Below, piece by piece: positions 8,609-33,647 of a stretch of 64,000 nt of DNA; the first letter of the stretch is position 1; each line of letters begins with the position of its first letter. The notes under the pieces were generated by a model. It made no database searches and had not been told where the DNA came from. It saw nothing but the letters and a program-made list of their open reading frames with translations. This DNA comes from an uncultured Gammaproteobacteria bacterium (lineage in GTDB: Bacteria; Patescibacteriota; Patescibacteriia; Patescibacteriales; GWC2-42-12), in assembly GCA_964560005.1 (NCBI GenBank), contig CAZLKB010000002.1:381-64380 (forward strand), read 5' to 3'. The translations under genes and the position numbers were made by a program.

Positions 8609-8686
8609 AAAGTATTTTGGTTATATTTTTTATATAATTCATACTAACAGCTTTTGATGTAAAAGGCAAGGCGTGGTAGAATATAA

Positions 8687-8796
8687 GTGCAAAATGTAAA
8701 TCTCAAAGTGCAAAATGACAATGTAAAATTAAAAATTTTTACTTTTAAAATTATTGCATTTTACACTTTAAATTGTCATTTTTCATTTTGATTTTT
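8687..8796. repeat. palindromic intergenic element, aaaatgtaaaat/gaaaatgacaat family (copy 1)
   Basis: left arm gtgcaaaatgtaaatctcaaagtgcaaaatgacaatgtaaaatt, right arm is its imperfect reverse complement. Confidence 0.85.
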
Positions 8797-8814
8797 TAAT
8801 TTTAAACTTTGATT

Positions 8815-9417
8815 ATGGACATACTATTTGCCTTAATAATTATATTATTTTCCGCCATTATCCACGAATATATGCACGGCTGGATGGCCGATAGATTGGG
8901 CGACCCGACGGCGCGCGACGCCGGCCGCCTAACCTTGAATCCGGTCGCCCATATTGACATTTGGGGCTCAATTTTAATGCCGGTTTTGATTTTTATCGGT
9001 ACCGGCGGCTCTCTGATTTTCGGTTACGCTAAACCAGTGCCGTTTAATCCATACAATTTAAGGGATCAAAAGTACGGTTCGGCCAAGGTAGCGGTCGCCG
9101 GCCCGCTGGCTAACTTAATCACCGCCCTGTTCTTCGGCTTATTTTTAAGATTCGTGCCGGGCTTAAGCTTGGTTTTAGTTTCGTTTTTAGCCGCCATTGT
9201 GCAGATAAATTTAGTTTTAATGATATTCAATCTCTTGCCCATACCGCCGTTAGACGGATCAAAAGTGATAATGCCGTTTTTGCCTTATAATCTGCAAATG
9301 AAATTATCGCAATTAGAGCCTTACGGTTTTATGTTGGTTCTATTTTTCGTCTTCTTCGGCTTTTCCCTAATCGTTCCGATTATCAATTTTTTATTTAGGC
9401 TGATAGTGGGAATTTAA
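8815..9417 (+). CDS. site-2 protease family (peptidase M50) membrane metalloprotease
   Basis: HEYMHG (HExxH) and NLLPIPPLDG motifs; the TTG at 8809 lies inside the repeat, so ATG 8815 is preferred. Confidence 0.8.
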   Translation: MDILFALIIILFSAIIHEYMHGWMADRLGDPTARDAGRLTLNPVAHIDIWGSILMPVLIFIGTGGSLIFGYAKPVPFNPYNLRDQKYGSAKVAVAGPLANLITALFFGLFLRFVPGLSLVLVSFLAAIVQINLVLMIFNLLPIPPLDGSKVIMPFLPYNLQMKLSQLEPYGFMLVLFFVFFGFSLIVPIINFLFRLIVGI

Positions 9418-10932: not shown

Positions 10933-10943
10933 CGCTCGCTAAG

Positions 10944-11060
10944 TTGAAAATGTAAAAATCAAAATGGAAAATGACAGTTTAAAATGTAAAATTTCAATAT
11001 TATTAATTTTTAATTTTACATTGTCATTTTAAACTTTGAGATTTACATTTTACATTTTTT
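10944..11060. repeat. palindromic intergenic element, aaaatgtaaaat family (copy 2)
   Basis: gaaaatgtaaaaatcaaaatggaaaatgacagt is near-identical to copies at 13144, 18082 and 33131. Confidence 0.9.
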
Positions 11061-11063
11061 ATT

Positions 11064-13145
11064 ATGCCCAGAGAGTATAGCTTAGAAAAAACCAGAAATA
11101 TCGGCGTGATCGCCCATATTGACGCCGGAAAAACCACTGTCAGCGAGCGGATTCTTTTTTATACCGGCAAAAAGCATAAGATCGGCGAAGTGCACGAAGG
11201 TTCAACCGATTTGGACTGGATGGAGCAGGAGCGGGAGCGCGGCATAACCATTACTTCCGCGGCCACCACTTGCTTTTGGAAAGATTGCCGCATTAATTTA
11301 ATTGATACTCCGGGGCATGTGGATTTTACCGCCGAAGTTGAAAGGTCTTTGCGCGTCCTGGACGGCGGGGTGGTAGTCTTTGACGGCGTGGCCGGAGTGG
11401 AACCGCAATCCGAAACAGTCTGGCACCAAGCGGATAAATATAAAGTTCCCCGCTTAGCTTTTATAAATAAAATGGACCGCACCGGAGCCGATTTCTATAA
11501 GGATTTGGCGGCTATCCATAAGAGATTGACTAAGCATGCCTATCCGGTTCAGCTGCCGATCGGCGCCGAAGACCAATTTAAAGGCATGATAGATTTATTT
11601 GAAAGAAAGGCCAGATTTTTTCTGGACGAATTAGGCACTAAGTGGGAAGACAAGGAAGTGCCGGCCGATATGAAAGAAAAGGTGGAAGAGCATCGAGCCA
11701 AGCTGGTTGAGGCTATCGCGGAAAACGACGACGCTTTAATGAATAAGTATTTAGCCGGCGAAAATATTCCAACCGAAGATTTAAAAAAAGTTCTGCGCCG
11801 AGCCGTTATCGCGAATAAAATCGTGCCGGTATTCTGCGGAAGCGCCTTAAAGAATAAAGGCGTGCAGAGCGTTTTGGACGGAGTGGTGGATTATCTGCCT
11901 TCGCCTTTGGATGTACCGGCGATTACCGGTTTTGATCCCGATGATAAGGAAAAGATTATCGCGGTTAAGCCGTCTGACGCGGAGCCATTCGCCTCTCTAG
12001 CTTTTAAAATCGCCACCGACCCCTATGTGGGAAAGCTTTGTTTTATCAGAGTTTATAGCGGAATTTTAAAATCCGGTTCTTATGTTTTAAATACTTCCAC
12101 CGGCAAGCGGGAAAGAATCGGCCGAATCGTCCGAATGCATGCCAATCATCGTGAAGAGCTTCAAGAAGTTTACGCCGGCGAAATCGCGGCCGTAATCGGC
12201 TTAAAAGGCACCACTACGGGCAATACTTTGTGCGATGAGAATCGGCCGGTCATTCTGGAATCAATCACTTTTCCCGAACCGGTTATTCATATCGCCATTG
12301 AACCGAAAACCAAGGCCGATCAGGAAAAAATGGGCATGGCTTTGTCAAAGCTAGCTGAAGAAGATCCGACTTTTAGAGTCCGAAGCGACGAAGAAACCAT
12401 GCAAACGGTTATCGGCGGCATGGGCGAACTTCATTTGGATATTATCGTTGATCGGATGAGGCGCGAATTCAAGGTTGAAGCCAATGTGGGCAAACCGCAG
12501 GTAGCTTATCGCGAAACCATTAAAAAATCAGCCGAAGCCGAAGGCAAATATATAAAACAATCCGGCGGACACGGACAATACGGGCATTGCTGGGTCAGAG
12601 TTGAGCCCAACGAACCGGGCAAGGGATTTGAATTTATTGATGAAGTTAAGGGCGGTTCCATTCCTCGCGAGTTTATTCCGGCGGTTGAAAAAGGCATTAA
12701 AGAGTCCTTGGATAGAGGTATTTTAGCCGGCTACCCGATCGTGGATGTTAAAGCCGCGGTTTTTGAAGGTTCTTACCATGAAGTTGATTCGTCCGAAGCG
12801 GCTTTTAAGATCGCCGGCTCTTTAGCTTTCCGAGACGCCTGCAAACATGCCTCGCCGGTAATTTTAGAACCGATTATGAAAGTTGAAGCCGTTACCCCGG
12901 AAGATTTTATGGGAGAAGTTATCGGCGACTTAAATTCAAAAAGAGCGCAGATTGAAGAAATGGGCGACCGAGCTCTGGTTAAATTCATTAAAGCTAAAGT
13001 TCCGCTATCGGAGATGTTCGGTTATGCCACTCAGCTTAGGTCAATGACCCAGGGCCGAGCCAGTTACACCATGGAATTCGCCTATTACGCCGAGGTGCCG
13101 AGAAATGTAGCCGAAGAGATAATCGGGGAGAAAGCGAAAAAGTGA
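11064..13145 (+). CDS. fusA: elongation factor G
   Basis: 693 aa; [17 protein letters not shown] and NKMD GTPase motifs plus EF-G domains. Confidence 0.97.
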
Positions 13146-13268
13146 AAAATGTAAAAATCAAAATGAAAAATGACAATGTAAAATGCAAAATTTAATAATT
13201 ATTTAATTTAATCATTTTACATTTTAAATTGTCATTTTCAACTTTGAGATTTAAATTTTACATTTTGA
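13144..13268. repeat. palindromic intergenic element, aaaatgtaaaat family (copy 3)
   Basis: gaaaaatgtaaaaatcaaaatgaaaaatgacaatgtaaaatgcaaaatt plus complementary right arm. Confidence 0.9.
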
Positions 13269-13271
13269 TGT

Positions 13272-13301
13272 TTGACATCTGATTATGTTAGAATATATAA
13301 T
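13272..13301 (+). promoter_or_regulatory. candidate promoter (TTGACA-N18-TATAAT)
   Basis: ttgaca 13272-13277, tataat 13296-13301. Confidence 0.35.
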
Positions 13302-14027: not shown

Positions 14028-14055
14028 CTGGATTCCCGCTTTCGCGGGAATGACA
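14028..14055. repeat. GC-rich hairpin repeat (ctggattcccgc-loop-gcgggaatgaca family)
   Basis: ctggattcccgctttcgcgggaatgaca; related copies at 28669, 55497, 55612, 56777, 59702 and 59754. Confidence 0.85.
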
Positions 14056-14085
14056 AGGGATGTTGGGGGCCGTAGAACAATAAAT

Positions 14086-15273
14086 ATGGCAGAAAAATTT
14101 GAACGCACAAAACCCCATGTAAATGTGGGGACCATCGGCCATGTGGATCATGGCAAAACCACCTTGACCGCGGCAATGCTAAAGGTATTGCACAGCAAGG
14201 GTTTTAAAGCTACCGAAAGAAGCGTAGATCAGATTGATTCGGCTCCTGAAGAAAAGGCTCGCGGCATCACGATTGCCACCTGCCATGTTGAATATGAAAC
14301 CGAAAAAAGGCACTATGCTCATGTTGATTGTCCGGGACACGCCGATTATGTAAAGAACATGATCACCGGCGCCGCCCAAATGGACGGAGCTATTTTAGTG
14401 GTCTCCGCCTCGGACGGCCCCATGCCTCAAACCAGAGAACATATATTACTCGCCAGACAGGTCGGCGTACCTTATATTATTGTATTTTTGAATAAATGCG
14501 ATATGGTTGAAGACAAGGAATTAATTGACTTGGTTGAGGAAGAAATCCGCGATTTATTGAAGAAATACGAATTCCCCGGCGATACCACCCCGATTATCAG
14601 GGGTTCGGCTTTAAAAGCTTTAGAGAATCCCGAAGGTGAATACGGCAAAGCGATTTTAGACTTGGCCAAAGCTTTGGATGATTATATTCCCGAGCCGAAG
14701 CGCGAAACCGATAAGCCATTCTTAATGCCGGTTGAAGATATCTTTTCCATTGAAGGCCGCGGCACCGTGGTTACCGGCAGAATTGAAAGAGGCATGATAA
14801 AGACAAATGAAGAAGTGGAAATAGTCGGCTTACGCGAAACGCAAAAGACCGTTATTACCGGCATAGAAATGTTTAATAAGTCGTTAGACAGCGGCATGGC
14901 CGGAGATAACGCCGGACTCTTGCTTCGCGGCACTAAGAAAGATGAAGTTGAAAGAGGCCAGGTTTTAGCCAAGCCAGGATCAGTTCATCCTCATACCGAA
15001 TATGAAGGCGAAGTATTTATTTTGACTAAAGAAGAAGGCGGCAGGCACAAGCCATTTTTCAAAGGCTATAAGCCGCAATTTTATATCCGCACCACTGATG
15101 TTACCGGCGAAGTTGAATTGCCTGAAGGCACGGAAATGGTTATGCCCGGCGACACGGTTAATTTAAAAATTAAATTAATCGCTCCGGTTGCTTTGGAAGA
15201 AAAAATGAGATTCGCCATCCGCGAAGGCGGCAAGACCGTGGGCGCGGGAGTAGTTACTAAGATTATTAAGTAG
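14086..15273 (+). CDS. tuf: elongation factor Tu
   Basis: [34 protein letters not shown] and NKCD; ATG 14086 preferred because the track start at 14050 lies in the hairpin repeat. Confidence 0.97.
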
Positions 15274-15356
15274 ACATTTTATCCAGCTCCAGCTTTTTAA
15301 ACTGGGGCTGGATTATAATGCATATTTAAAGAAACAAAATTATGAGAGGACAAAAC

Positions 15357-15569
15357 ATGGAGAATCCATCTAAAAAAGAAACTGATATCGAAAGAAACGA
15401 AAGATTAAAAAAAATGGCAGCTAAAGCCGCTGAAGAAATTACGATGGATCCAAATAGGCCGATTGAGCAACAATTTGTAGCTTTTACTTACTTAAGAAAT
15501 ATGGAAATTGAAAGAAAGTTGGATGAAATGATAAAAAGATTAGAAAAAAGGGATAAACCCACATCCTAA
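15357..15569 (+). CDS. hypothetical charged protein (70 aa) between tuf and rpsJ
   Basis: ORF with GAGGA 6 nt upstream of ATG 15357. Confidence 0.4.
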   Translation: MENPSKKETDIERNERLKKMAAKAAEEITMDPNRPIEQQFVAFTYLRNMEIERKLDEMIKRLEKRDKPTS

Positions 15570-15700: not shown

Positions 15701-16078
15701 ATGACCGAAGCTAAAGAAAAAAAGTCTGTCAAAGATGACATGCCAAAATCCGAGACAAAAGCCAATGAAGATTCTAAACAAAGGATCAGAATTAAAATTA
15801 AGGCCTTTGACCACAAAATTATTGACCAGTCAACCAAGACGATAATTGATACGGCCGAACGAACCGGCGCCCAGATTTTCGGGCCGATTCCCTTGCCGAC
15901 CGAAAAGAAAAAGTATACGGTGAACAGTTCCACTTTTGTGCATAAGGATTCTAGAGACCAGTACGAGATCAGAATTCATAAAAGATTGGTGGATATTATT
16001 GAACCCACGGCTAAAACCATAGAATCGCTGACTAATCTAGGCTTACCGGCCGGGGTGGATATAGAGATAAAGATGTAA
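15701..16078 (+). CDS. rpsJ: 30S ribosomal protein uS10 (N-terminal extension)
   Basis: [24 protein letters not shown] and HKRLVDI motifs. Confidence 0.95.
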
Positions 16079-16178
16079 AAAGATTTAAGCCCTCCTTCTA
16101 AAGGAGGGGTAGGGGAGGTTAAAATGAAATTAATTTAACCCCCTTAATCCCCCTTTGCAAGGGGGACAAATATACGGG

Positions 16179-16207
16179 TTGACACAAATCACTTTATAAG
16201 TTAGAAT
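16179..16207 (+). promoter_or_regulatory. candidate promoter inside the rpsJ-rplC gap (TTGACA-N17-TAGAAT)
   Basis: ttgaca 16179-16184, tagaat 16202-16207. Confidence 0.4.
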
Positions 16208-16394
16208 GTATTTTATATAATATTAATGATTGTTTAGGTAACTCCCTTAGGGAAAGTACTTAAATAAGATTTGATATAAAAACGAGGTAAAAATCAATAA
16301 ACAGCTAAAAACTAATTAATCGCGAATTTTAGAAGCTAATTTACGCGAATAAAACTAATGAGTAGGCGAAAGCTTTCGCTGAAAATAGTTAGGG

Positions 16395-16420
16395 CTGGTT
16401 TGTTGAAGACCAGTTTTTTT
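16395..16420 (+). terminator. weak hairpin plus T7 run
   Basis: ctggt ttgttgaag accag ttttttt. Confidence 0.35.
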
Positions 16421-16547
16421 AATCTACGAATTACAAATTTGCTACAAATTTACAAATAAATATAACGCAAAGCCGGGAATATAAAAAGTAATATTTGTAA
16501 ATTTGTATAGGATTAGTAATTTGTAGGAGACGAATGAATCAAATTGT
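16420..16547. repeat. palindromic intergenic element, tacaaat/tacgaat family
   Basis: tctacgaattacaaatttgctacaaatttacaaata versus tatttgtaaatttgtataggattagtaatttgtagga. Confidence 0.8.
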
Positions 16548-17417
16548 ATGAAATTCATTATAGGAAAAAAAATTGAAATGACCCAGGTTTGGCAAGGCGA
16601 GAAAATAATTGCCGTGACCAAGGTTCTGGCCGGACCCTGCCCGGTGGTTCAGTTGAAAAACCAAGAGCCGGACGGCTATAGCGCGGTTCAGCTAGGCTTC
16701 GGCTTAAGGAAAGAGAAGAATATTAAAAAGCCGCAAATCGGCCATTTAAAAAAAGCCGGCTTGACCGCTATAGATGGAAATAAAAATTTAAGATATTTAA
16801 GAGAATTCAGAGTTATTCCGCTTCGCGGAAGCCGCGCTACAAATGCGGCACATGCGAATAAAATACCAGAAGGAATAAAAGATTTAAAAGTAGGCAATGT
16901 TATTGATGTAAGCACTTTCCAGGCGGGAGACACCGTGAAGGTGACCGGTACATCAAAGGGCAAGGGCTTTCAGGGCGGAGTTAAAAGACATCATTTTCAC
17001 GGCCATAATACCACTCACGGCACTAAAGATCAGGTTAGAACCTCGGGAGCGATCGGCGCCGGCGGACCCCAGCATGTTTTTAAAGGCAAGAGAATGCCCG
17101 GACGGATGGGCGACGCACGGATAACGACCAGTAATTTAATGATTGTGCAAGTTGATCAAGCTAACAATATTTTATATATTAGCGGTTCGGTTCCTGGAGC
17201 CAGAAACGGTTTAGTTATGATCTACGGAGACGGGGAGCTGAAAGTCGTTCAGCCGAATGTAGAAAAGGCGGAAGTGAAAGAAGCCAAGCCTGCGGTTGAG
17301 GTCGTTGCCGAAAAACCAGTTGAGGCGGTTAAAGCTGCAGAACCGGTTAAAGAAGAAAAGTCCGCCCAAGGCGAATCCGCCTCTGGCGGAAAAGAAGCAA
17401 ATAAAACAAGCAAGTAA
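16548..17417 (+). CDS. rplC: 50S ribosomal protein uL3 (internal insertion and Lys/Glu/Ala-rich C-terminal extension)
   Basis: 289 aa; GKKIEMTQVW, GTSKGKGFQGGVKRH and MPGRMG motifs. Confidence 0.95.
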   Translation: MKFIIGKKIEMTQVWQGEKIIAVTKVLAGPCPVVQLKNQEPDGYSAVQLGFGLRKEKNIKKPQIGHLKKAGLTAIDGNKNLRYLREFRVIPLRGSRATNAAHANKIPEGIKDLKVGNVIDVSTFQAGDTVKVTGTSKGKGFQGGVKRHHFHGHNTTHGTKDQVRTSGAIGAGGPQHVFKGKRMPGRMGDARITTSNLMIVQVDQANNILYISGSVPGARNGLVMIYGDGELKVVQPNVEKAEVKEAKPAVEVVAEKPVEAVKAAEPVKEEKSAQGESASGGKEANKTSK

Positions 17418-17467
17418 ATTAAAATACAAAACAACAAACAACAGAAACAAGAAAACGGAGGTTTGAA

Positions 17468-17704
17468 ATGAAAGTAGAATCGATTAAGATTAAAGCAAAA
17501 CGGAGCAAGATTGGTGGTAGGTTGGTAACGATTGTCGATAGGGCCGATTTGCTGAAAAGGCGCCGGGAACTTAAAAGGATTTTATCAAAGCCAAGGATTC
17601 CTACAGATGATCGTGGTCTCGCTAATCTTAACGAGACCGAAAGGGAAAAACATCAGGTCATGCTTAAGCTGATTGAGTTGTTGCTAGTTAGCGTCCGTGG
17701 TTAA
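17468..17704 (+). CDS. hypothetical small protein, tandem cassette unit 1 (78 aa)
   Basis: strong SD aacGGAGGtttgaaATG; conserved flanks shared with unit 2. Confidence 0.5.
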   Translation: MKVESIKIKAKRSKIGGRLVTIVDRADLLKRRRELKRILSKPRIPTDDRGLANLNETEREKHQVMLKLIELLLVSVRG

Positions 17705-17771
17705 TCCTCACGGGGGCAGAGGAAATAAATTCAAAACAAAAACAACAGAAACAAGAAAACGGAGGTCTGAA

Positions 17772-18011
17772 ATGAAAGTACAATCGTTGGTTATTATCGA
17801 AAGAGCAGAGCTTAATAGCAAGGCCTGGGAATTGTCCGTCCGCCACAATCAGTTGGTGAGAGAAATAGAAGCCCAGGGAGATCCCACTGGAAGCAAAATA
17901 CAAGAGTTGCACGAGACCGATGCCGTGATGGGGTTTATTCAACGAGAGTTGCTCAAGGAAGAGGAAGTGAAGCCCAAAGACTACGGCATTCGCACTGTTC
18001 ATATCGGTTAA
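17772..18011 (+). CDS. hypothetical small protein, tandem cassette unit 2 (79 aa)
   Basis: strong SD aacGGAGGtctgaaATG; MKVxS N-terminus and xG-stop C-terminus shared with unit 1. Confidence 0.5.
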   Translation: MKVQSLVIIERAELNSKAWELSVRHNQLVREIEAQGDPTGSKIQELHETDAVMGFIQRELLKEEEVKPKDYGIRTVHIG

Positions 18012-18081
18012 TCCTCGCGGGGGCGGAGGAAATAAAGCCCCATTTTTAAAGATTAGTGATTTAAATAATTTAAAATTTAAA

Positions 18082-18207
18082 AGTCAAAATGGAAAATGAC
18101 AGTGCAAAATGTAAAATTACTTGTCCCGCTTCGCCTAACGAAGGCGGGGAAAATTCATTTTAAATTTTAATTTGTCACTTTTCATTTTGAGATTTGCAGT
18201 TTACATT
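18082..18207. repeat. palindromic intergenic element, aaaatgtaaaat family (copy 4), with a GC hairpin nested at its centre
   Basis: agtcaaaatggaaaatgacagtgcaaaatgtaaaatt ... cccgcttcgcctaacgaaggcgggg ... complementary arm. Confidence 0.85.
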
Positions 18208-18213
18208 AAGGTT

Positions 18214-18945
18214 ATGCCAATTAAAGTAAGAGTCTACAACCAAAACGCGGAAGCAACCGGGGAAATGGAACTTAGCCCTAAAGTTTTCGGTATGAAAGCC
18301 AATTCGGCTCTAGTGCATCAGGCGGTTGTCACCCAGATGGCTAACATGAGAAAAGTTATCGCCCACACTAAGACCAGATGCGAAGTCAGAGGCGGCGGCA
18401 GAAAACCCTGGGCGCAAAAGGGCACGGGCCGAGCGCGCCACGGGTCGTCCCGGTCGCCGATTTGGAAAGGCGGAGGCGTTACTTTCGGACCGAGAAATGA
18501 TCGAAATTTTAAAATGAGAATTAATAAAAAGATGAGGCAGAATGCCATCTTGATGGTTTTATCCGATAAATTGGCCAGTAATCATTTTACGATTGTGGAT
18601 AAGCTGGAAATGGCCGAGTTTAAAACCAAACTGTTTAATCAAATAATCGCCGGATTTGAAAAGAAGCTTTTCACCACCTCGGTAGCAACGGCTCCGGTTG
18701 AAAAAAACATAGAAAAAAAAGCGGAAAACAAAACGGTAGCCGCTAAAACCAAAAAATCGGCAGGCAAGCGCAGTATCTTGATAATCGTGCAAAAAGCGGA
18801 GGAAAAGTTAAGCGGTTCGGCTAGAAATCTGCCCGGCATTGAGTTAATGAATCTGGATAATATTAATATAGTTGATTTATTGCAGTATAAAAATTTAATT
18901 TTAACCAAAGCGGTTATAGAGAAGCTGGAAGAGAGATACAAGTAG
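18214..18945 (+). CDS. rplD: 50S ribosomal protein uL4
   Basis: GGGRKPWAQKGTGRARHGS motif; ATG 18214 preferred because the track start at 18172 is inside the repeat. Confidence 0.93.
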   Translation: MPIKVRVYNQNAEATGEMELSPKVFGMKANSALVHQAVVTQMANMRKVIAHTKTRCEVRGGGRKPWAQKGTGRARHGSSRSPIWKGGGVTFGPRNDRNFKMRINKKMRQNAILMVLSDKLASNHFTIVDKLEMAEFKTKLFNQIIAGFEKKLFTTSVATAPVEKNIEKKAENKTVAAKTKKSAGKRSILIIVQKAEEKLSGSARNLPGIELMNLDNINIVDLLQYKNLILTKAVIEKLEERYK

Positions 18946-20512: not shown

Positions 20513-20606
20513 ACAAGAAGTTGAAAGTTATAAAGTTTATAAAGTTATAAAGTAGATGAATTTAACTTTACAAACTATCAACTTTATAACTTTATAACTA
20601 ATTTAT
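20513..20606. repeat. palindromic spacer, ataaagtt family
   Basis: gttgaaagttataaagtttataaagttataaagt versus actttacaaactatcaactttataactttataac. Confidence 0.85.
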
Positions 20607-21059: not shown

Positions 21060-21635
21060 ATGGAAGTTAAAGCTAAAGTAAAATTTATCAGAATGTCGTC
21101 CACGAAGATACGTTTAGTGGCTAATCTGATTAAGGACATGCCGGTAGATAAGGCGCTGGACCAGCTTCAGTTTATTAATAAACTGGCTGCTCGTCCGGTG
21201 GCTAAGCTCGTTAAGTCCGCCATAGCTAACGCGGAACATAATTTTGAATTGGCTAAAGATAATTTATTTATAAAAGAATTAACCGTAGGCGAAGGTCCGA
21301 CTTTGAAACGCTGGCTGCCCAGGGCGCACGGACGAGCGACGCCGCTTAGAAAACGAACCAGCCATATTAATTTAATATTGGGAGAAATTAAAGCATCGGG
21401 TAAAACCGGGGCTAAAAAACAGAATCTAACCGCGCCGGTTAAGCTGGACGCCAGTCCGAAGAAAGAGCCGGCCGTTAAGATAAAAGAGGCGGCCAAACCG
21501 AAAAAAAATATTGAAACCAAGGAAGAAGGCAAGACTATAATTGATCCGAGAATGGAAGGCCGAGGCGGGCACGCTAAAATTGAAGGCGGCAGCAAGGGAT
21601 TTGTCGGTAAAATGTTTAGACGGAAAAGTGGTTAA
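21060..21635 (+). CDS. rplV: 50S ribosomal protein uL22 (long Lys-rich C-terminal extension)
   Basis: SSTKIRLVANLIKDMPV and RAHGRATPLRKRTSHI motifs. Confidence 0.95.
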   Translation: MEVKAKVKFIRMSSTKIRLVANLIKDMPVDKALDQLQFINKLAARPVAKLVKSAIANAEHNFELAKDNLFIKELTVGEGPTLKRWLPRAHGRATPLRKRTSHINLILGEIKASGKTGAKKQNLTAPVKLDASPKKEPAVKIKEAAKPKKNIETKEEGKTIIDPRMEGRGGHAKIEGGSKGFVGKMFRRKSG

Positions 21636-21735
21636 CAAGTAAAAAGTTATAAAGTTCATAAAGTTTGTAAAGTTATAAATTAAAAAATAGGCTACTTTCA
21701 ACTTTATAAACTTTCAAACTTTATAACTAATTTAT
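21636..21735. repeat. palindromic spacer, ataaagtt family
   Basis: aaagttataaagttcataaagtttgtaaagttataaa versus tactttcaactttataaactttcaaactttataac. Confidence 0.85.
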
Positions 21736-22425
21736 ATGGGACATAAAGTAAATCCAAAGGTTTTCAGACTGAATATTACCAGGACCTGGCCGTCCAGGTG
21801 GTTTGCTACTGGGCAAACCATGATCAGCAATTTAAAACAAGATGTTAATTTGAAAAAATATTTATTTACCGAATTGCGCGAGGCCGGGGTAGATAGGATT
21901 GAAATTGATAGAAGCGGCCACAAGGTTACTATCGGCATCTTTACGGCCAAGCCCGGAATACTAATCGGCCGCGGCGGCAGCGGCGCCGGTGATTTAAAAA
22001 AGAAATTGCATGATAAATTTTTAAAGAATTTTAAATTAGGCGATATAAATTTGAATATTACCGAATTTGACCGGCCCAATTTATCCAGCAACATTATCGC
22101 CGGCGCCATGGCGATTGATATTGAAAAGAGGATGCCTTTTAGAAGAGTAATGAAGCAGGCGATTAACCGCATTGAAAGAGCCGGCGCCTTAGGGGTAAAG
22201 GTGATTATCAGCGGCCGGCTGAATGGCGCGGAAATCGCCAGAACGGAAATGCTGACTTCGGGTAAAGTGCCGTTGCATACTTTAAGAGCCGATATAGATT
22301 TTGCCAAAGCCACGGCCAAAACCACCTATGGCACCATCGGAATAAAATTATGGATATATAAAGGCGATGTCTTTAAAAAAGAAAGCGAAACCGCCAAGGG
22401 GGAAGTAGTAGGAGAGAAGAAATAA
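21736..22425 (+). CDS. rpsC: 30S ribosomal protein uS3
   Basis: MGHKVNPKVFRL, KPGILIGRGG (KH domain) and ISGRLNGAEIAR motifs. Confidence 0.96.
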   Translation: MGHKVNPKVFRLNITRTWPSRWFATGQTMISNLKQDVNLKKYLFTELREAGVDRIEIDRSGHKVTIGIFTAKPGILIGRGGSGAGDLKKKLHDKFLKNFKLGDINLNITEFDRPNLSSNIIAGAMAIDIEKRMPFRRVMKQAINRIERAGALGVKVIISGRLNGAEIARTEMLTSGKVPLHTLRADIDFAKATAKTTYGTIGIKLWIYKGDVFKKESETAKGEVVGEKK

Positions 22426-22504
22426 GAGTTATAAAGTTCATAAAGTTATAAAGTTAAAAGTAAATTCTGATAACTTTATAAACTTTATAACTTTCAACTA
22501 ATAT
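22426..22504. repeat. palindromic spacer, ataaagtt family
   Basis: gagttataaagttcataaagttataaagtt versus aactttataaactttataactttcaac. Confidence 0.85.
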
Positions 22505-22909: not shown

Positions 22910-22993
22910 AAAACGAATCATCGCGAATAAATTTAAAATCAGATTAATAAAATTCGTGTTCATTCGCTATAATTCGCGATTAATTAGTTATAT
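22910..22993. repeat. palindromic spacer, cgcgaat family
   Basis: acgaatcatcgcgaataaattt versus aaattcgtgttcattcgctataattcgcgat. Confidence 0.8.
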
Positions 22994-23179
22994 ATGGAAT
23001 TAAAGGAATTAAAATTAAAAGCCGAGAAAGAACTTAAGCAACTTTTGAACGAATTCCGCGATAAATTGAGAGATTTGCGTTTTAAGGATGCCAATAAGCA
23101 ATTAAAAGATGTTAGAGAGATTCGGGAGATAAAGAAGACGATCGCTCGGATTTTAACATTGTTAAAGGTTAAGAAATAA
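22994..23179 (+). CDS. rpmC: 50S ribosomal protein uL29
   Basis: 61 aa; ELKELKLKAEKELKQLLNEFRDKLRDLRF coiled-coil pattern and operon position. Confidence 0.9.
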   Translation: MELKELKLKAEKELKQLLNEFRDKLRDLRFKDANKQLKDVREIREIKKTIARILTLLKVKK

Positions 23180-23494: not shown

Positions 23495-23578
23495 AAGCAA
23501 ATTAGCGCGAATGAATGGATAATAAGGTTAATAAATTAGAGTTAATTCGCGTTAAATTTGAGATTAATTAGTTATTAT
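23495..23578. repeat. palindromic spacer, cgcgaat family
   Basis: aaattagcgcgaatgaatggataataa versus ttagagttaattcgcgttaaattt. Confidence 0.8.
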
Positions 23579-23950
23579 ATGATACAGGTACAATCAATTT
23601 TAAAAGTTGCCGATAACACAGGCGCCAAGAGAGTATTGTGCGTTAAGATTTTTGGCGGTTATAAAAAACGCTATGCCGGCGTAGGCGAGGTTATTACCGC
23701 GGTCGTTAAGGAAGCCGAACCGCATGCCGCCATAAAAAACGGAGATATCGTTCACGCCGTAGTCGTTAGAACCAGAAAAGAAGTCAGAAGGCCGGATGGC
23801 GTTTATGTGCGCTTTGATGAGAATGCTTGCGTTATTATTGATAAAGACAAGAAAGAGCCTAAGGGCACAAGAATTTTCGGTCCGGTGGCCAGGGAACTAA
23901 AACAGTTGGGCTTTATAAAGATTGCCTCGCTGGCGCCGGAAGTTTTGTAA
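23579..23950 (+). CDS. rplN: 50S ribosomal protein uL14
   Basis: [17 protein letters not shown]...[11 protein letters not shown]...GPVARELK; start placed at the internal ATG in the frame of the supplied ORF track. Confidence 0.95.
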
Positions 23951-24051
23951 AGCGAATTCTACGCGAATTAGAACGAATAGTCGCGAATGGATAATAAAAT
24001 TAATAAAATTTGAATTAATTCGCGCCTAATTAGAGATAAATTAGTTATTAT
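23951..24051. repeat. palindromic spacer, cgcgaat family
   Basis: agcgaattctacgcgaattagaacgaatagtcgcgaatgg versus tttgaattaattcgcgcctaattagag. Confidence 0.8.
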
Positions 24052-24384
24052 ATGAAGATTAAAAAGGGAGATAAAGTAAAAATATTAGCCGGTAAGGATA
24101 AGGGTAAAATCGGCAAGGTTTTGCAGATTTTTCCTTCTGCCAATCGGGCTTCAATTGAAGGCCTAAATCTTTTAATTAAGCACATGCGGCCGAGAAAACA
24201 AGGCGAAAAAGGCCAAAGAATAGAATTTCCGGCACCGATGGATTTATCTAATATCATTCTGATTTGCAAGTCTTGCGATAAGCCGACCAGAGTAGGTTAT
24301 AAATATATAGAAGTCATGAAAAATGAAGCTAAACATAAGAAGAAAGTCAGAGTATGTAAAAAATGCAAGCAAGTGATGGAATAG
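24052..24384 (+). CDS. rplX: 50S ribosomal protein uL24 (Cys-containing C-terminal extension)
   Basis: MKIKKGDKVKILAGKDKGKIGKVLQI KOW motif. Confidence 0.93.
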   Translation: MKIKKGDKVKILAGKDKGKIGKVLQIFPSANRASIEGLNLLIKHMRPRKQGEKGQRIEFPAPMDLSNIILICKSCDKPTRVGYKYIEVMKNEAKHKKKVRVCKKCKQVME

Positions 24385-24474
24385 CGAATAAAAAAAGAAT
24401 TGATACGCGAATTAATCGAATTAACACTTAAATTGGCGATGAATTCGCATTTAATTGGAGATTAATTAGTATAT
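24385..24474. repeat. palindromic spacer, cgcgaat family
   Basis: gatacgcgaattaatcgaattaacac versus ggcgatgaattcgcatttaattgg. Confidence 0.75.
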
Positions 24475-25062
24475 ATGGCTTTAAAAGAAAAATATCAAAA
24501 AGAAATAATGCCAAAGCTGGAAGCTAAATTCGGGTATAAGAACCCGATGGCTGTGCCGCGCTTAACCAAAGTGGTAATTAATTCCGGCGTCGGCAGGAAT
24601 GCTAAAGACAAGGCTTTTATTGATAGCGTATATTCCAGTTTAGAGAGAATCAGCGGTCAAAAGCCGGTGCTAACTAAAGCCAAGCAATCAATTTCCGCAT
24701 TCAAAACCAGAAAGGGCATGGTTGTGGGCGTGGCTGTTACCTTGCGCAACAAGAGAATGTATGATTTTGTGGAAAAATTAGTTGGCATAACTTTTCCGAG
24801 AATTAGAGATTTCAGAGGCATTAACCCCAAGCAAGTAGATGATAAGGGAAATTTAGCCGTAGGTTTTAAAGAACATATCGCTTTTCCGGAAATCAAAGCC
24901 GATGAAGCGGAGAATATCCATGGCCTGGGCGTTTGTTTAAACACCACTGCTAAAAACCACGAACAAGGCTTAGAACTGTTTAAATTAATGGGATTTCCTT
25001 TTAGAACGGATGATGAAATTGAATCAAAGAAAGCTAAAAAGAAGAATAAAAAAATTAATTAA
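24475..25062 (+). CDS. rplE: 50S ribosomal protein uL5
   Basis: [25 protein letters not shown] and FPRIRDFRG motifs. Confidence 0.96.
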
Positions 25063-33115: not shown

Positions 33116-33130
33116 TAGATAAAGTTAATT

Positions 33131-33235
33131 TAAAATGTAAAAATCAAAATGGAAAATGACAGTTGAAAATGTAAAATTAATAATTTTAAATTTTACATTG
33201 TCATTTTGCATTTTGAGATTTAAACTTTACATTTT
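33131..33235. repeat. palindromic intergenic element, aaaatgtaaaat family (copy 5)
   Basis: taaaatgtaaaaatcaaaatggaaaatgacagttgaaaatgtaaaatt plus complementary arm. Confidence 0.9.
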
Positions 33236-33236
33236 T

Positions 33237-33647
33237 ATGAATTATCTCGGCATAGATTGGGGAGAAAAAAGAATTGGCCTGGCCTTGGCTGACGGCGAAA
33301 CTAAAATCGCCACGCCTTTTAAAGTGGCGGCAAATGTGGCAGAAGTGCTGAAAGCGGCGGCAGAGGAAGAAATAGACGTGGTGGTGCTAGGCAAGCCGTC
33401 TTCAATTACGAATAATCAATTACAAATTACGAATGAAAAATACAATAAATTTATTGACGAATTGATGAGTAAGGTGAAAGTACCCGTTGAATTGGTTGAT
33501 GAGCGTTTGTCTAGCAAGGCGGCCGATGCTTTAATCGGCACTAAAAAAATTTACCCGCCGAAGCCTAGGCGAAGGCGGGCCAAGGCTTCTCGCGACGAAA
33601 TCGCGGCTATGCTGATTTTACAAAGTTATTTGGATAGAAAAATATAA
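33237..33647 (+). CDS. ruvX: Holliday junction resolvase-like RuvX/YqgF
   Basis: MNYLGIDWGEKRIGLALAD, DERLSS and AAMLILQSYLD motifs; the track start at 33156 lies in the repeat. Confidence 0.85.
   Translation: MNYLGIDWGEKRIGLALADGETKIATPFKVAANVAEVLKAAAEEEIDVVVLGKPSSITNNQLQITNEKYNKFIDELMSKVKVPVELVDERLSSKAADALIGTKKIYPPKPRRRRAKASRDEIAAMLILQSYLDRKI

Follow-up and report, generated by a model that had tools for sequence, protein, structure and literature searches.

Between the ribosomal protein genes rplC (uL3) and rplD (uL4) of an uncultured bacterium placed in the Patescibacteriota (assembly GCA_964560005.1, contig CAZLKB010000002.1), two small open reading frames (ORFs) stand one behind the other, framed by nearly the same sequence and encoding clearly different proteins. 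How did almost identical ends come to enclose such different interiors inside a ribosomal protein operon? A preliminary description of this DNA had seen in the arrangement a cassette or diversification system. Analysing the 64,000-nt stretch that contains it (the window), we arrived at another reading, to which we assign a probability of about 0.6: the pair is a tandem duplicate of a resident small gene, with the upstream ORF1 as a strongly diverged paralog of the downstream ORF2, and is neither a mobile cassette nor the product of programmed diversification.

The two units, each of about 305 nt, lie head-to-tail at 17409-17729 and 17720-18036, with a spacing of 304-311 nt between matching parts. 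A repeat search defined a 5' repeat of 54 nt (17429-17482 versus 17733-17786, 91% identity), a weaker extension of it in the 5' direction (17409-17447 versus 17720-17758, 74%) and a 3' repeat of 31 nt (17699-17729 versus 18006-18036, 94%). Divided by function, the leader, the Shine-Dalgarno (SD) sequence and the first five codons are 92% identical between the units, with zero synonymous differences among the five codons, and the last codon, the stop codon and the 25 nt behind it are 94% identical. Each flank block occurs exactly twice in the 64 kb when three or fewer mismatches are allowed; none is expected from shuffled sequence. The edges of the blocks are sharp, with 12, 12, 11 and 10 matches in successive steps of 12 nt, followed by 6, 3 and 3.

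Within these edges the likeness ends. ORF1 (17468..17704, + strand) encodes 78 amino acids (aa) with an isoelectric point (pI) of 11 and a net charge of +10.6; ORF2 (17772..18011, + strand, start at 17772) encodes an acidic protein of 79 aa with a pI of 5.6. The two have in common the first residues MKVxS, a terminal Gly and the stop codon. Their interiors gave no BLASTP alignment at E≤100, and Smith-Waterman and global alignments did not score significantly better than shuffled controls (p=0.10-0.19 for protein, p=0.10 for DNA). When the interiors were shuffled, the path from the shared ATG to the shared TAA stayed open in 0.6% and 1.3% of cases and, since shuffled interiors so rarely remain open, we regard both as maintained ORFs. 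Orthologous flanks in other species are 45-72% identical to one another versus 92-94% between the two units, and ORF1 is further from ORF2 than any ORF2 ortholog is, despite the near-identical ends. The units, the conserved flanks and the unrelated proteins thus stand as first described. So does the earlier argument that plain duplication followed by drift is insufficient, given the sharp edges and the excess of flank identity over that between orthologs. Gradual loss of constraint does not fit because the borders are sharp and the shared codons lack synonymous differences; recombination is needed because identical ends surround an unrelated core with sharp edges. Either gene conversion kept homogenising the ends as the core diverged, or the core of a recent duplicate was exchanged.

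ORF2 has relatives elsewhere. A word-indexed protein search with ORF2 returned only itself, but this negative was false: five homologues, with 32-53% identity and E values from 3e-12 to 2e-4, emerged when HMMER was run exhaustively. The closest is P0123 (81 aa, 53% identity, E=3e-12); the others, with E values of about 1e-7 to 1e-4, are P0125 (112 aa), P0126 (annotated at 83 aa, about 90 aa if translation begins at an upstream ATG), P0127 (88 aa) and P0129 (91 aa). The same list contained two giant repeat proteins, P0124 and P0128, which were discarded as spurious because their scores were sums of weak matches to repeats. Aligned, the family shows an N-terminal motif, MxxKS-VVIER-EL, and a strongly conserved C-terminus, F[IL]xxELLKEEEVxPxDYG[IV]xxxxIG. 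ORF2 resembles the family over its full length and carries both motifs, which makes it a member; ORF1 reaches 5.9 bits through the N-terminal motif alone and falls outside. Selection acts at the protein level, with 13 of the 14 invariant residues encoded by more than one codon and a nonsynonymous proportion (pN) of 0.31-0.42 versus a saturated synonymous proportion (pS) of 0.56-0.97.

In every contig long enough to tell (loci L083-L091), the homologue is present as a single copy, on the same strand, between the genes for L3 and L4. All loci that reach far enough have rplC on its 5' side (L083-L085, L087, L088, L090 and L091), and rplD was seen on its 3' side in L083, L086, L087, L088 and L091; L090 and L089 end before rplD. 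Its own SD sequence and a hairpin with a U-tract after the stop codon accompany the gene in all six family lineages, the window's included, and the five lineages of related Patescibacteria carry one unit each. No family member was found in any of 80 species-representative loci, including the closest, L003 (79% L3 identity, 187-nt rplC-rplD gap), nor in two further relatives. The rplC-rplD gap is 86 nt or less in 64 of the 76 related loci measured, versus 796 nt in the window. A search with the family alignment gave no match in JGI metagenomes or viral contigs. The family gene is lineage-restricted and patchily distributed, occurring in a few groundwater Patescibacteria.

Neither ORF had a significant match in Pfam, PHROGs, NCBIfam, PADLOC or the PDB sequences; one candidate, DUF6477 at E=0.043, fails its own cut-off. 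An Rfam scan of the window returned tRNAs only. The AlphaFold2 (AF2) model of ORF2 is a helical hairpin (helices 11-35 and 41-64) with a mean confidence score (pLDDT) of 76 and a core above 90, and fold searches against PDB and BFVD retrieved generic helical hairpins only (E≥0.2). We found no description of a gene at the rplC-rplD position in the literature and no name for it in any source, and the family, which has six members with ORF2, appears to be undescribed.

How the extra unit came about can be read at the junction. The 3' block of unit 1 (17699..17729, + strand) takes in the last codon, the TAA stop and, of a terminator-like hairpin, the 5' arm with the loop; it tracks unit 2 up to GAGGAAATAAA and then continues with TTCAAAACAAAAACAACAG in place of GCCCCATTTTT. 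The segment TTCAAAACAAAAACAACAG duplicates what stands after the rplC stop codon, TAAATTAAAATACAAAACAAC, and that sequence has its ortholog in the L090 leader. Thus, in the stretch that holds the junction and the unit 2 leader (17720..17771, + strand), AGGAAATAAA from the terminator loop runs directly into a copy of the post-rplC leader. The 10-mers at the boundaries, AGCAAGTAAA at the 3' end of rplC (17409-17418, the left microhomology) and AGGAAATAAA in the terminator loop, are identical at 7 of 10 positions. The resulting layout, A-[X]-A'-[X]-A'-rest, is the expected product of unequal exchange or slippage between them. The units are head-to-tail and the 3' end of one is joined to the 5' start of the next at microhomology, as in a tandem duplication; the fusion of terminator loop and post-rplC sequence looks like the signature of a microhomology-mediated event. 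Because the homologues are single-copy in relatives and the junction has this layout, we take ORF2 for the resident ortholog and unit 1 for the added copy. The longer gaps between rplC and the ORF in L083 and L087 hold no relic of a unit 1.

The course of events that we read from this is as follows. Normally a single-copy small-protein gene lies between rplC and rplD, equipped with an SD leader and a hairpin. In this genome about 307 nt, the gene together with its signals, were duplicated head-to-tail via the 10-mers AGCAAGTAAA and AGGAAATAAA. The downstream copy, ORF2, is the ortholog and retains the complete terminator; the upstream copy, ORF1, has kept the leader, the five first codons, the last codon, the stop codon and half of the terminator around a core that is now basic and unrelated-looking. 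ORF1 would on this account be a strongly diverged paralog and not foreign DNA. Short-tract gene conversion, possibly aided by a shared constraint on the expression signals, may have held the ends of the units near-identical.

Several small observations together favour a diverged paralog. Applied to ORF1, the family profile hidden Markov model (HMM) aligned residues 20-37, VTIVDRADLLKRRRELKR, with vVvieRaeLrkkelelsa (5.9 bits, empirical p=0.0145 from shuffles), and hhalign picked the same segment with a probability of 7%. When the DNA of the two cores is aligned locally, the best match again covers this N-terminal motif, and an in-frame 10-mer, ACGAGACCGA (N/H-E-T-E/D), is common to both ORFs. 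The predicted structure of ORF1 (pLDDT 65) begins with a beta-hairpin followed by helices 25-39, 48-52 and 56-74, so that both models contain a helix-loop-helix core. It is because of these matches, the near-equal lengths and the similar predicted cores that we prefer divergence from ORF2 to an outside origin.

The competing account that survives best also begins with a recent tandem duplication, after which the upstream core would have been replaced by unrelated DNA through illegitimate or homology-facilitated recombination at the ends, making ORF1 a chimeric new gene with no more than ORF2's start and stop signals borrowed. Sharp identity borders, flanks 92-94% identical around cores that are statistically unalignable and the missing C-terminal motif are what such a replacement would leave behind. 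However, no donor for the ORF1 core was found in the 64-kb window or in the phage, plasmid and viral collections; a swapped core would have needed to keep the frame and change the length by only 3 nt; and the weak N-terminal family motif and the in-frame 10-mer would be unexpected in foreign DNA. We consider core replacement possible but doubtful. ORF1 itself gave no match in viral contigs, phages or plasmids. Its core also turned out to be neither a reverse complement nor a frame-shifted copy, and it was not copied from elsewhere in the window.

A number of points weigh against the diverged paralog and the history built on it. Homology between the ORF1 core and ORF2 is not established as judged from the alignments (no BLASTP hit, p=0.1-0.19, hhalign 7%), and ORF1 is without the best-conserved part of the family, the C-terminal motif. 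The search for ORF1 homologues, which found none beyond itself, was the word-indexed one that also missed all ORF2 homologues; because the exhaustive search covered ORF2 alone, the ORF1 protein could belong to another family. That the tracts of 54 nt and 31 nt underwent gene conversion is an inference. The nearest available relatives (L3 identity at most 79%) are too distant to date the duplication. As for the terminator that the reading assigns to the resident gene, its loop is 12-16 nt long and not of the short 3-8 nt kind, a consensus terminator scan made no call, and the invariance of the core pairs means that there is no covariation proof for the hairpin.

The flanks have a recognisable content of their own. 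The unit 1 leader (17418..17467, + strand) is A/C-rich, almost without G and unstructured, and carries GGAGG 6 nt 5' of the ATG. The same GGAGG-N6-ATG precedes ORF2 and stands at no other real gene start in the window, as the first description had said of the operon; AT-rich leaders that lack an SD sequence precede the 17 genes around the pair, a set that runs from tuf to rpsN and includes 16 translation genes. Folding of the two leaders is weak, with minimum free energies of -3.6 and -4.8 kcal/mol over 83 nt. The unit 1 leader is orthologous to those of L090, L091 and L088, and the relatives' leaders are likewise A/C-rich and almost without G, with a strong SD sequence (taaattaaaatacaaaaacaacaac...AGGAG in L090, ...aaacGGAGG in L091).

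A hairpin in the 3' block was also part of the preliminary description, and it is there, though not in the same form in both units. In unit 2 it has the arms GGGGC (18020-18024) and GCCCC (18037-18041), a 12-nt loop and the tract U5 (18043-18047), the whole spanning 18020..18047 on the + strand and beginning 8 nt past the ORF2 stop codon. Unit 1 is without the 3' arm and the U-tract, and a different, local hairpin at 17691-17717 encloses its stop codon. A G-rich/C-rich hairpin with a U-tract follows the stop codon in six of six lineages, its 5' arm 6-9 nt away; a GC-rich stem with a U-tract directly behind it is one mark of an intrinsic terminator, and the design is the same throughout. The tail of unit 2 matches those of L083, L088, L090 and L091, including the hairpin, the U-tract and the motif AAAGATTAGT right after it (18048..18057, + strand), which is conserved at the DNA level in five of the six lineages. 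The segment TTTTTAAAGATTAGT (18043-18057 in the window, 801-815 in L083, with equivalents in L088 and L090) is more conserved across species than the coding sequence upstream of it. Judged from the sequence, the flanks of the units are the resident gene's own expression signals.

Both ORFs would then be co-transcribed with rplC and efficiently translated by SD-dependent initiation on an open leader in an otherwise SD-poor genome. Transcription would partly halt at the hairpin after ORF2, before rplD, which would then depend on read-through, on an AT-rich repeat element directly 5' of it, or on both. The acidic ORF2 protein and the basic ORF1 protein may act in translation or ribosome biology, possibly as a pair.

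Such an arrangement invites the thought that the main role of the locus is cis-regulatory: translation of the small ORF up to its stop codon would decide whether the hairpin forms and hence how much transcription proceeds into rplD; the conserved ends would be control elements acting as RNA, and the duplicate would add a second translated ORF upstream. The hairpin and U-tract at a constant 6-9 nt from the stop codon in six lineages, the concentration of conservation at the C-terminus, whose final residue is Gly or Pro, and the position directly 5' of the uL4 gene all suit this idea. So do known parallels. The S10 operon of E. coli is controlled by L4-dependent attenuation, and in pyrBI and tnaC the position of the ribosome controls termination; the common features are a translated ORF that ends a few nt before a hairpin and U-tract, 5' of the regulated gene, and the setting in the S10 operon beside rplD. 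Unlike in those attenuators, the ORF here encodes a conserved protein of 80-112 aa, and the element lies between rplC and rplD and not in an operon leader. The product is under purifying selection over its whole length and so is not a mere leader peptide; the hairpin loop is long and shows no compensatory changes; and the divergent core of ORF1 would be left unexplained. We regard a primarily cis-regulatory role as unlikely.

A further, more speculative proposal, which we rate as rather improbable, holds that the small ORF and the hairpin would form a translation-coupled switch before rplD (with a ribosome finishing or pausing at ...IG-stop), and/or that the acidic protein would be a lineage-specific ribosome-associated factor with the duplicate as its basic partner, the identical control sequences being held by a shared trans-acting regulator. 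If so, ribosomal protein operons of Patescibacteria would have a novel type of control. From the opposite charges of the two proteins, an ORF1-ORF2 interaction is plausible. Neighbouring, presumably co-transcribed genes for a basic and an acidic protein of about 80 aa each recall type II toxin-antitoxin pairs or Esx-like tandem helical-hairpin heterodimers, from which this pair differs in having no significant Pfam, NCBIfam, PADLOC or PHROGs match and no WxG motif, and in that the relatives carry the acidic gene only. The predicted two-helix hairpin of ORF2 recalls the ribosomal protein uL29 (rpmC), encoded in the same operon, and the top Foldseek matches included eukaryotic and bacterial uL29 chains; ORF2, however, is an acidic protein, and the window has its true rpmC elsewhere, at 22994-23179. 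ORF2 as uL29 was rejected, there being no Pfam match (PF00831), a probability of 0.5% in hhalign and fold E values of 0.4 or above.

The cassette or diversification system of the preliminary description, in which conserved ends would serve as recombination or targeting sites with varied cargos between them, is in our view very improbable. Conserved ends do surround divergent cargo here, SD-led genes in an SD-poor genome could suggest a foreign origin, and other Patescibacteria have acquired unrelated insertions at the rplC-rplD junction. However, there are two units only. Further units with the same flanks were looked for and none found, the relatives carrying one unit or none; both flank patterns are without a match in IMG/VR viral contigs, and the 3' flank, the one scanned against JGI metagenomes, had no match there either. 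This is in essence the outcome that the preliminary description had itself named as refuting its reading. One of the two cargos is the vertically conserved resident gene of this position, whose own leader and terminator, orthologous to those of other species, make up the ends, and the junction is that of a duplication.

Nor was any machinery for such a system found. No integrase, reverse transcriptase or transposase is encoded by the 20 large ORFs scanned, all of them housekeeping genes and a subset of the ORFs in this window of a 289-kb contig. Small ORFs in series with a conserved junction of about 85 nt do resemble integron cassette arrays. The junction here, however, is an A/C-rich unstructured leader and half a terminator; it has no attC-type inverted repeat, is essentially unstructured and offers GTTAATC, which misfits GTTRRRY; the imperfect palindrome with RYYYAAC/GTTRRRY cores is missing, as are further cassettes and a cargo of other than vertical descent. 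A comparison of the interiors as template and variable repeats of a diversity-generating retroelement gave 19-25% identity at non-A positions, a random level, in both registers and both directions, and the signature of such an element, differences confined to template adenines, is thus absent. Among tandem paralogs with concerted evolution of their ends, a parallel is offered by the vlp and vsp lipoprotein families of Mycoplasma, whose members have near-identical 5' regions and divergent bodies. These too are head-to-tail genes with near-identical upstream sequences and first codons, and with sharp mosaic borders that imply recombination; they differ from the present case, which has two copies, no signal peptide, repeats or phase-variation element, a place inside the S10 operon and one copy that is conserved as a single-copy gene in relatives.

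That two strain alleles of one locus were concatenated through their shared flanks, as divergent cores between shared ends might suggest in a metagenome-assembled genome (MAG), is scarcely credible, because two Logan contigs, independently assembled from separate sequencing runs, match the NCBI contig at 100% identity across the locus, the junction sequence is unique and no exact repeat at the locus reaches 31 bases, which leaves a k=31 assembly graph unambiguous there.

The gene order around the locus is tuf (14050-15273), rpsJ (15701-16078), rplC (16548..17417, + strand; Pfam Ribosomal_L3 on homologues), ORF1, ORF2, rplD (18214..18945, + strand; Pfam Ribosomal_L4 in the syntenic locus L091), rplW, and rplB onward; rplC and rplD were assigned from the ORF list, and the best matches of the window's L3 are Falkowbacteria-like MAGs. 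Directly 5' of rplD, at 18066..18208 (no strand assigned), repeat searches found an AT-rich palindromic element around a GC hairpin. It belongs to an intergenic family of five copies of about 130-150 nt in the window (8685-8822, 10941-11070, 13140-13278, 18066-18216 and 33126-33247), of the form AAAATGTAAAAATCAAAATGGAAAATGACAG ... CATTGTCATTTT..ACTTTGAGATTTA. Each copy ends at or just before a gene start, and the rplD copy has a central GC hairpin; the element might serve as a promoter or UP-type module, or else belong to the miniature repeats. In relatives, GC-rich palindromes resembling repetitive extragenic palindromic (REP) sequences, gtcattcccgaag...cgggaatgac, stand before rplD (L003 2751-2936, L088 1050-1220, L090 900-1024), where the window carries the AT-rich element.

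Elsewhere in the Patescibacteria the rplC-rplD junction holds unrelated insertions (L046 4781-5294, L060 4631-5015, L068 4601-5077), and in L062 and L065 the gap measures 3.5 and 2.3 kb. In several of these, minus-strand ORFs have the look of genes for lipoproteins or membrane proteins, as MKKMICIFLAICFCFLLISCSS does in L046. Insertions thus seem to have been tolerated here repeatedly.

Other spacers of the operon are expanded as well. Those at 22910-22993, 23495-23582, 23951-24055 and 24385-24480 (85-100 nt) precede rpmC, rplN, rplX and rplE and share a leader, ...AATTCGCG...GAGATTAATTAGTTATTATATG, termed D16; copies of this spacer repeat are 86% and 66% identical. Because the D16 leader recurs before these four genes, conserved upstream sequence before unrelated genes is a general habit of the genome's expanded spacers. 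A further motif, AAGTTATAAAGTTxATAAAGTT, recurs in the spacers that follow rplB, rplV and rpsC (20515-20565, 21626-21684 and 22416-22466), in part with an inverted copy before the next start. The rpsJ-rplC spacer (16079-16547) is unusually long at 469 nt; it contains a promoter-like TTGACA-17-TAGAAT at 16179-16207 (11 of 12 positions matching) and a terminator-like hairpin with a U-tract at 16391-16417, and looks like a separate leader or attenuator before rplC. The AT-rich spacer that separates tuf from rpsJ contains another orphan small ORF (15342-15569, 75 aa, no Pfam match). L3 has an in-frame insertion of about 21 aa, VIPLRGSRATNAAHANKIPEGI (16812-16877 in rplC), whose DNA is GC-rich and palindrome-like, ccgcttcgcggaagccgcg; L090 has the insertion too, and L088 and L091 lack it. 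The C-terminus of L3 is extended by about 55 aa rich in K, E, A and V.

The event behind the tandem pair, a duplication mediated by microhomology, is of an ordinary kind; its mosaic result is unusual. The pair is best classed as a small gene duplicated in this lineage, with a function that may be related to translation. An apparent cassette system is thereby recast as a more ordinary and testable case, a resident gene with its tandem duplicate. With identical expression signals on either side of a core that is unrelated, it is a clean natural example in which to study how a new small protein can arise from a duplicate. The locus also reveals an unannotated family of small proteins, six in number and without a Pfam or NCBIfam match, fixed between the genes for L3 and L4. 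Should uL4 expression be under the control of the gene or its hairpin, or should the protein bind to ribosomes, the family would add to the sparse knowledge of how translation is regulated in reduced, uncultivated bacteria.

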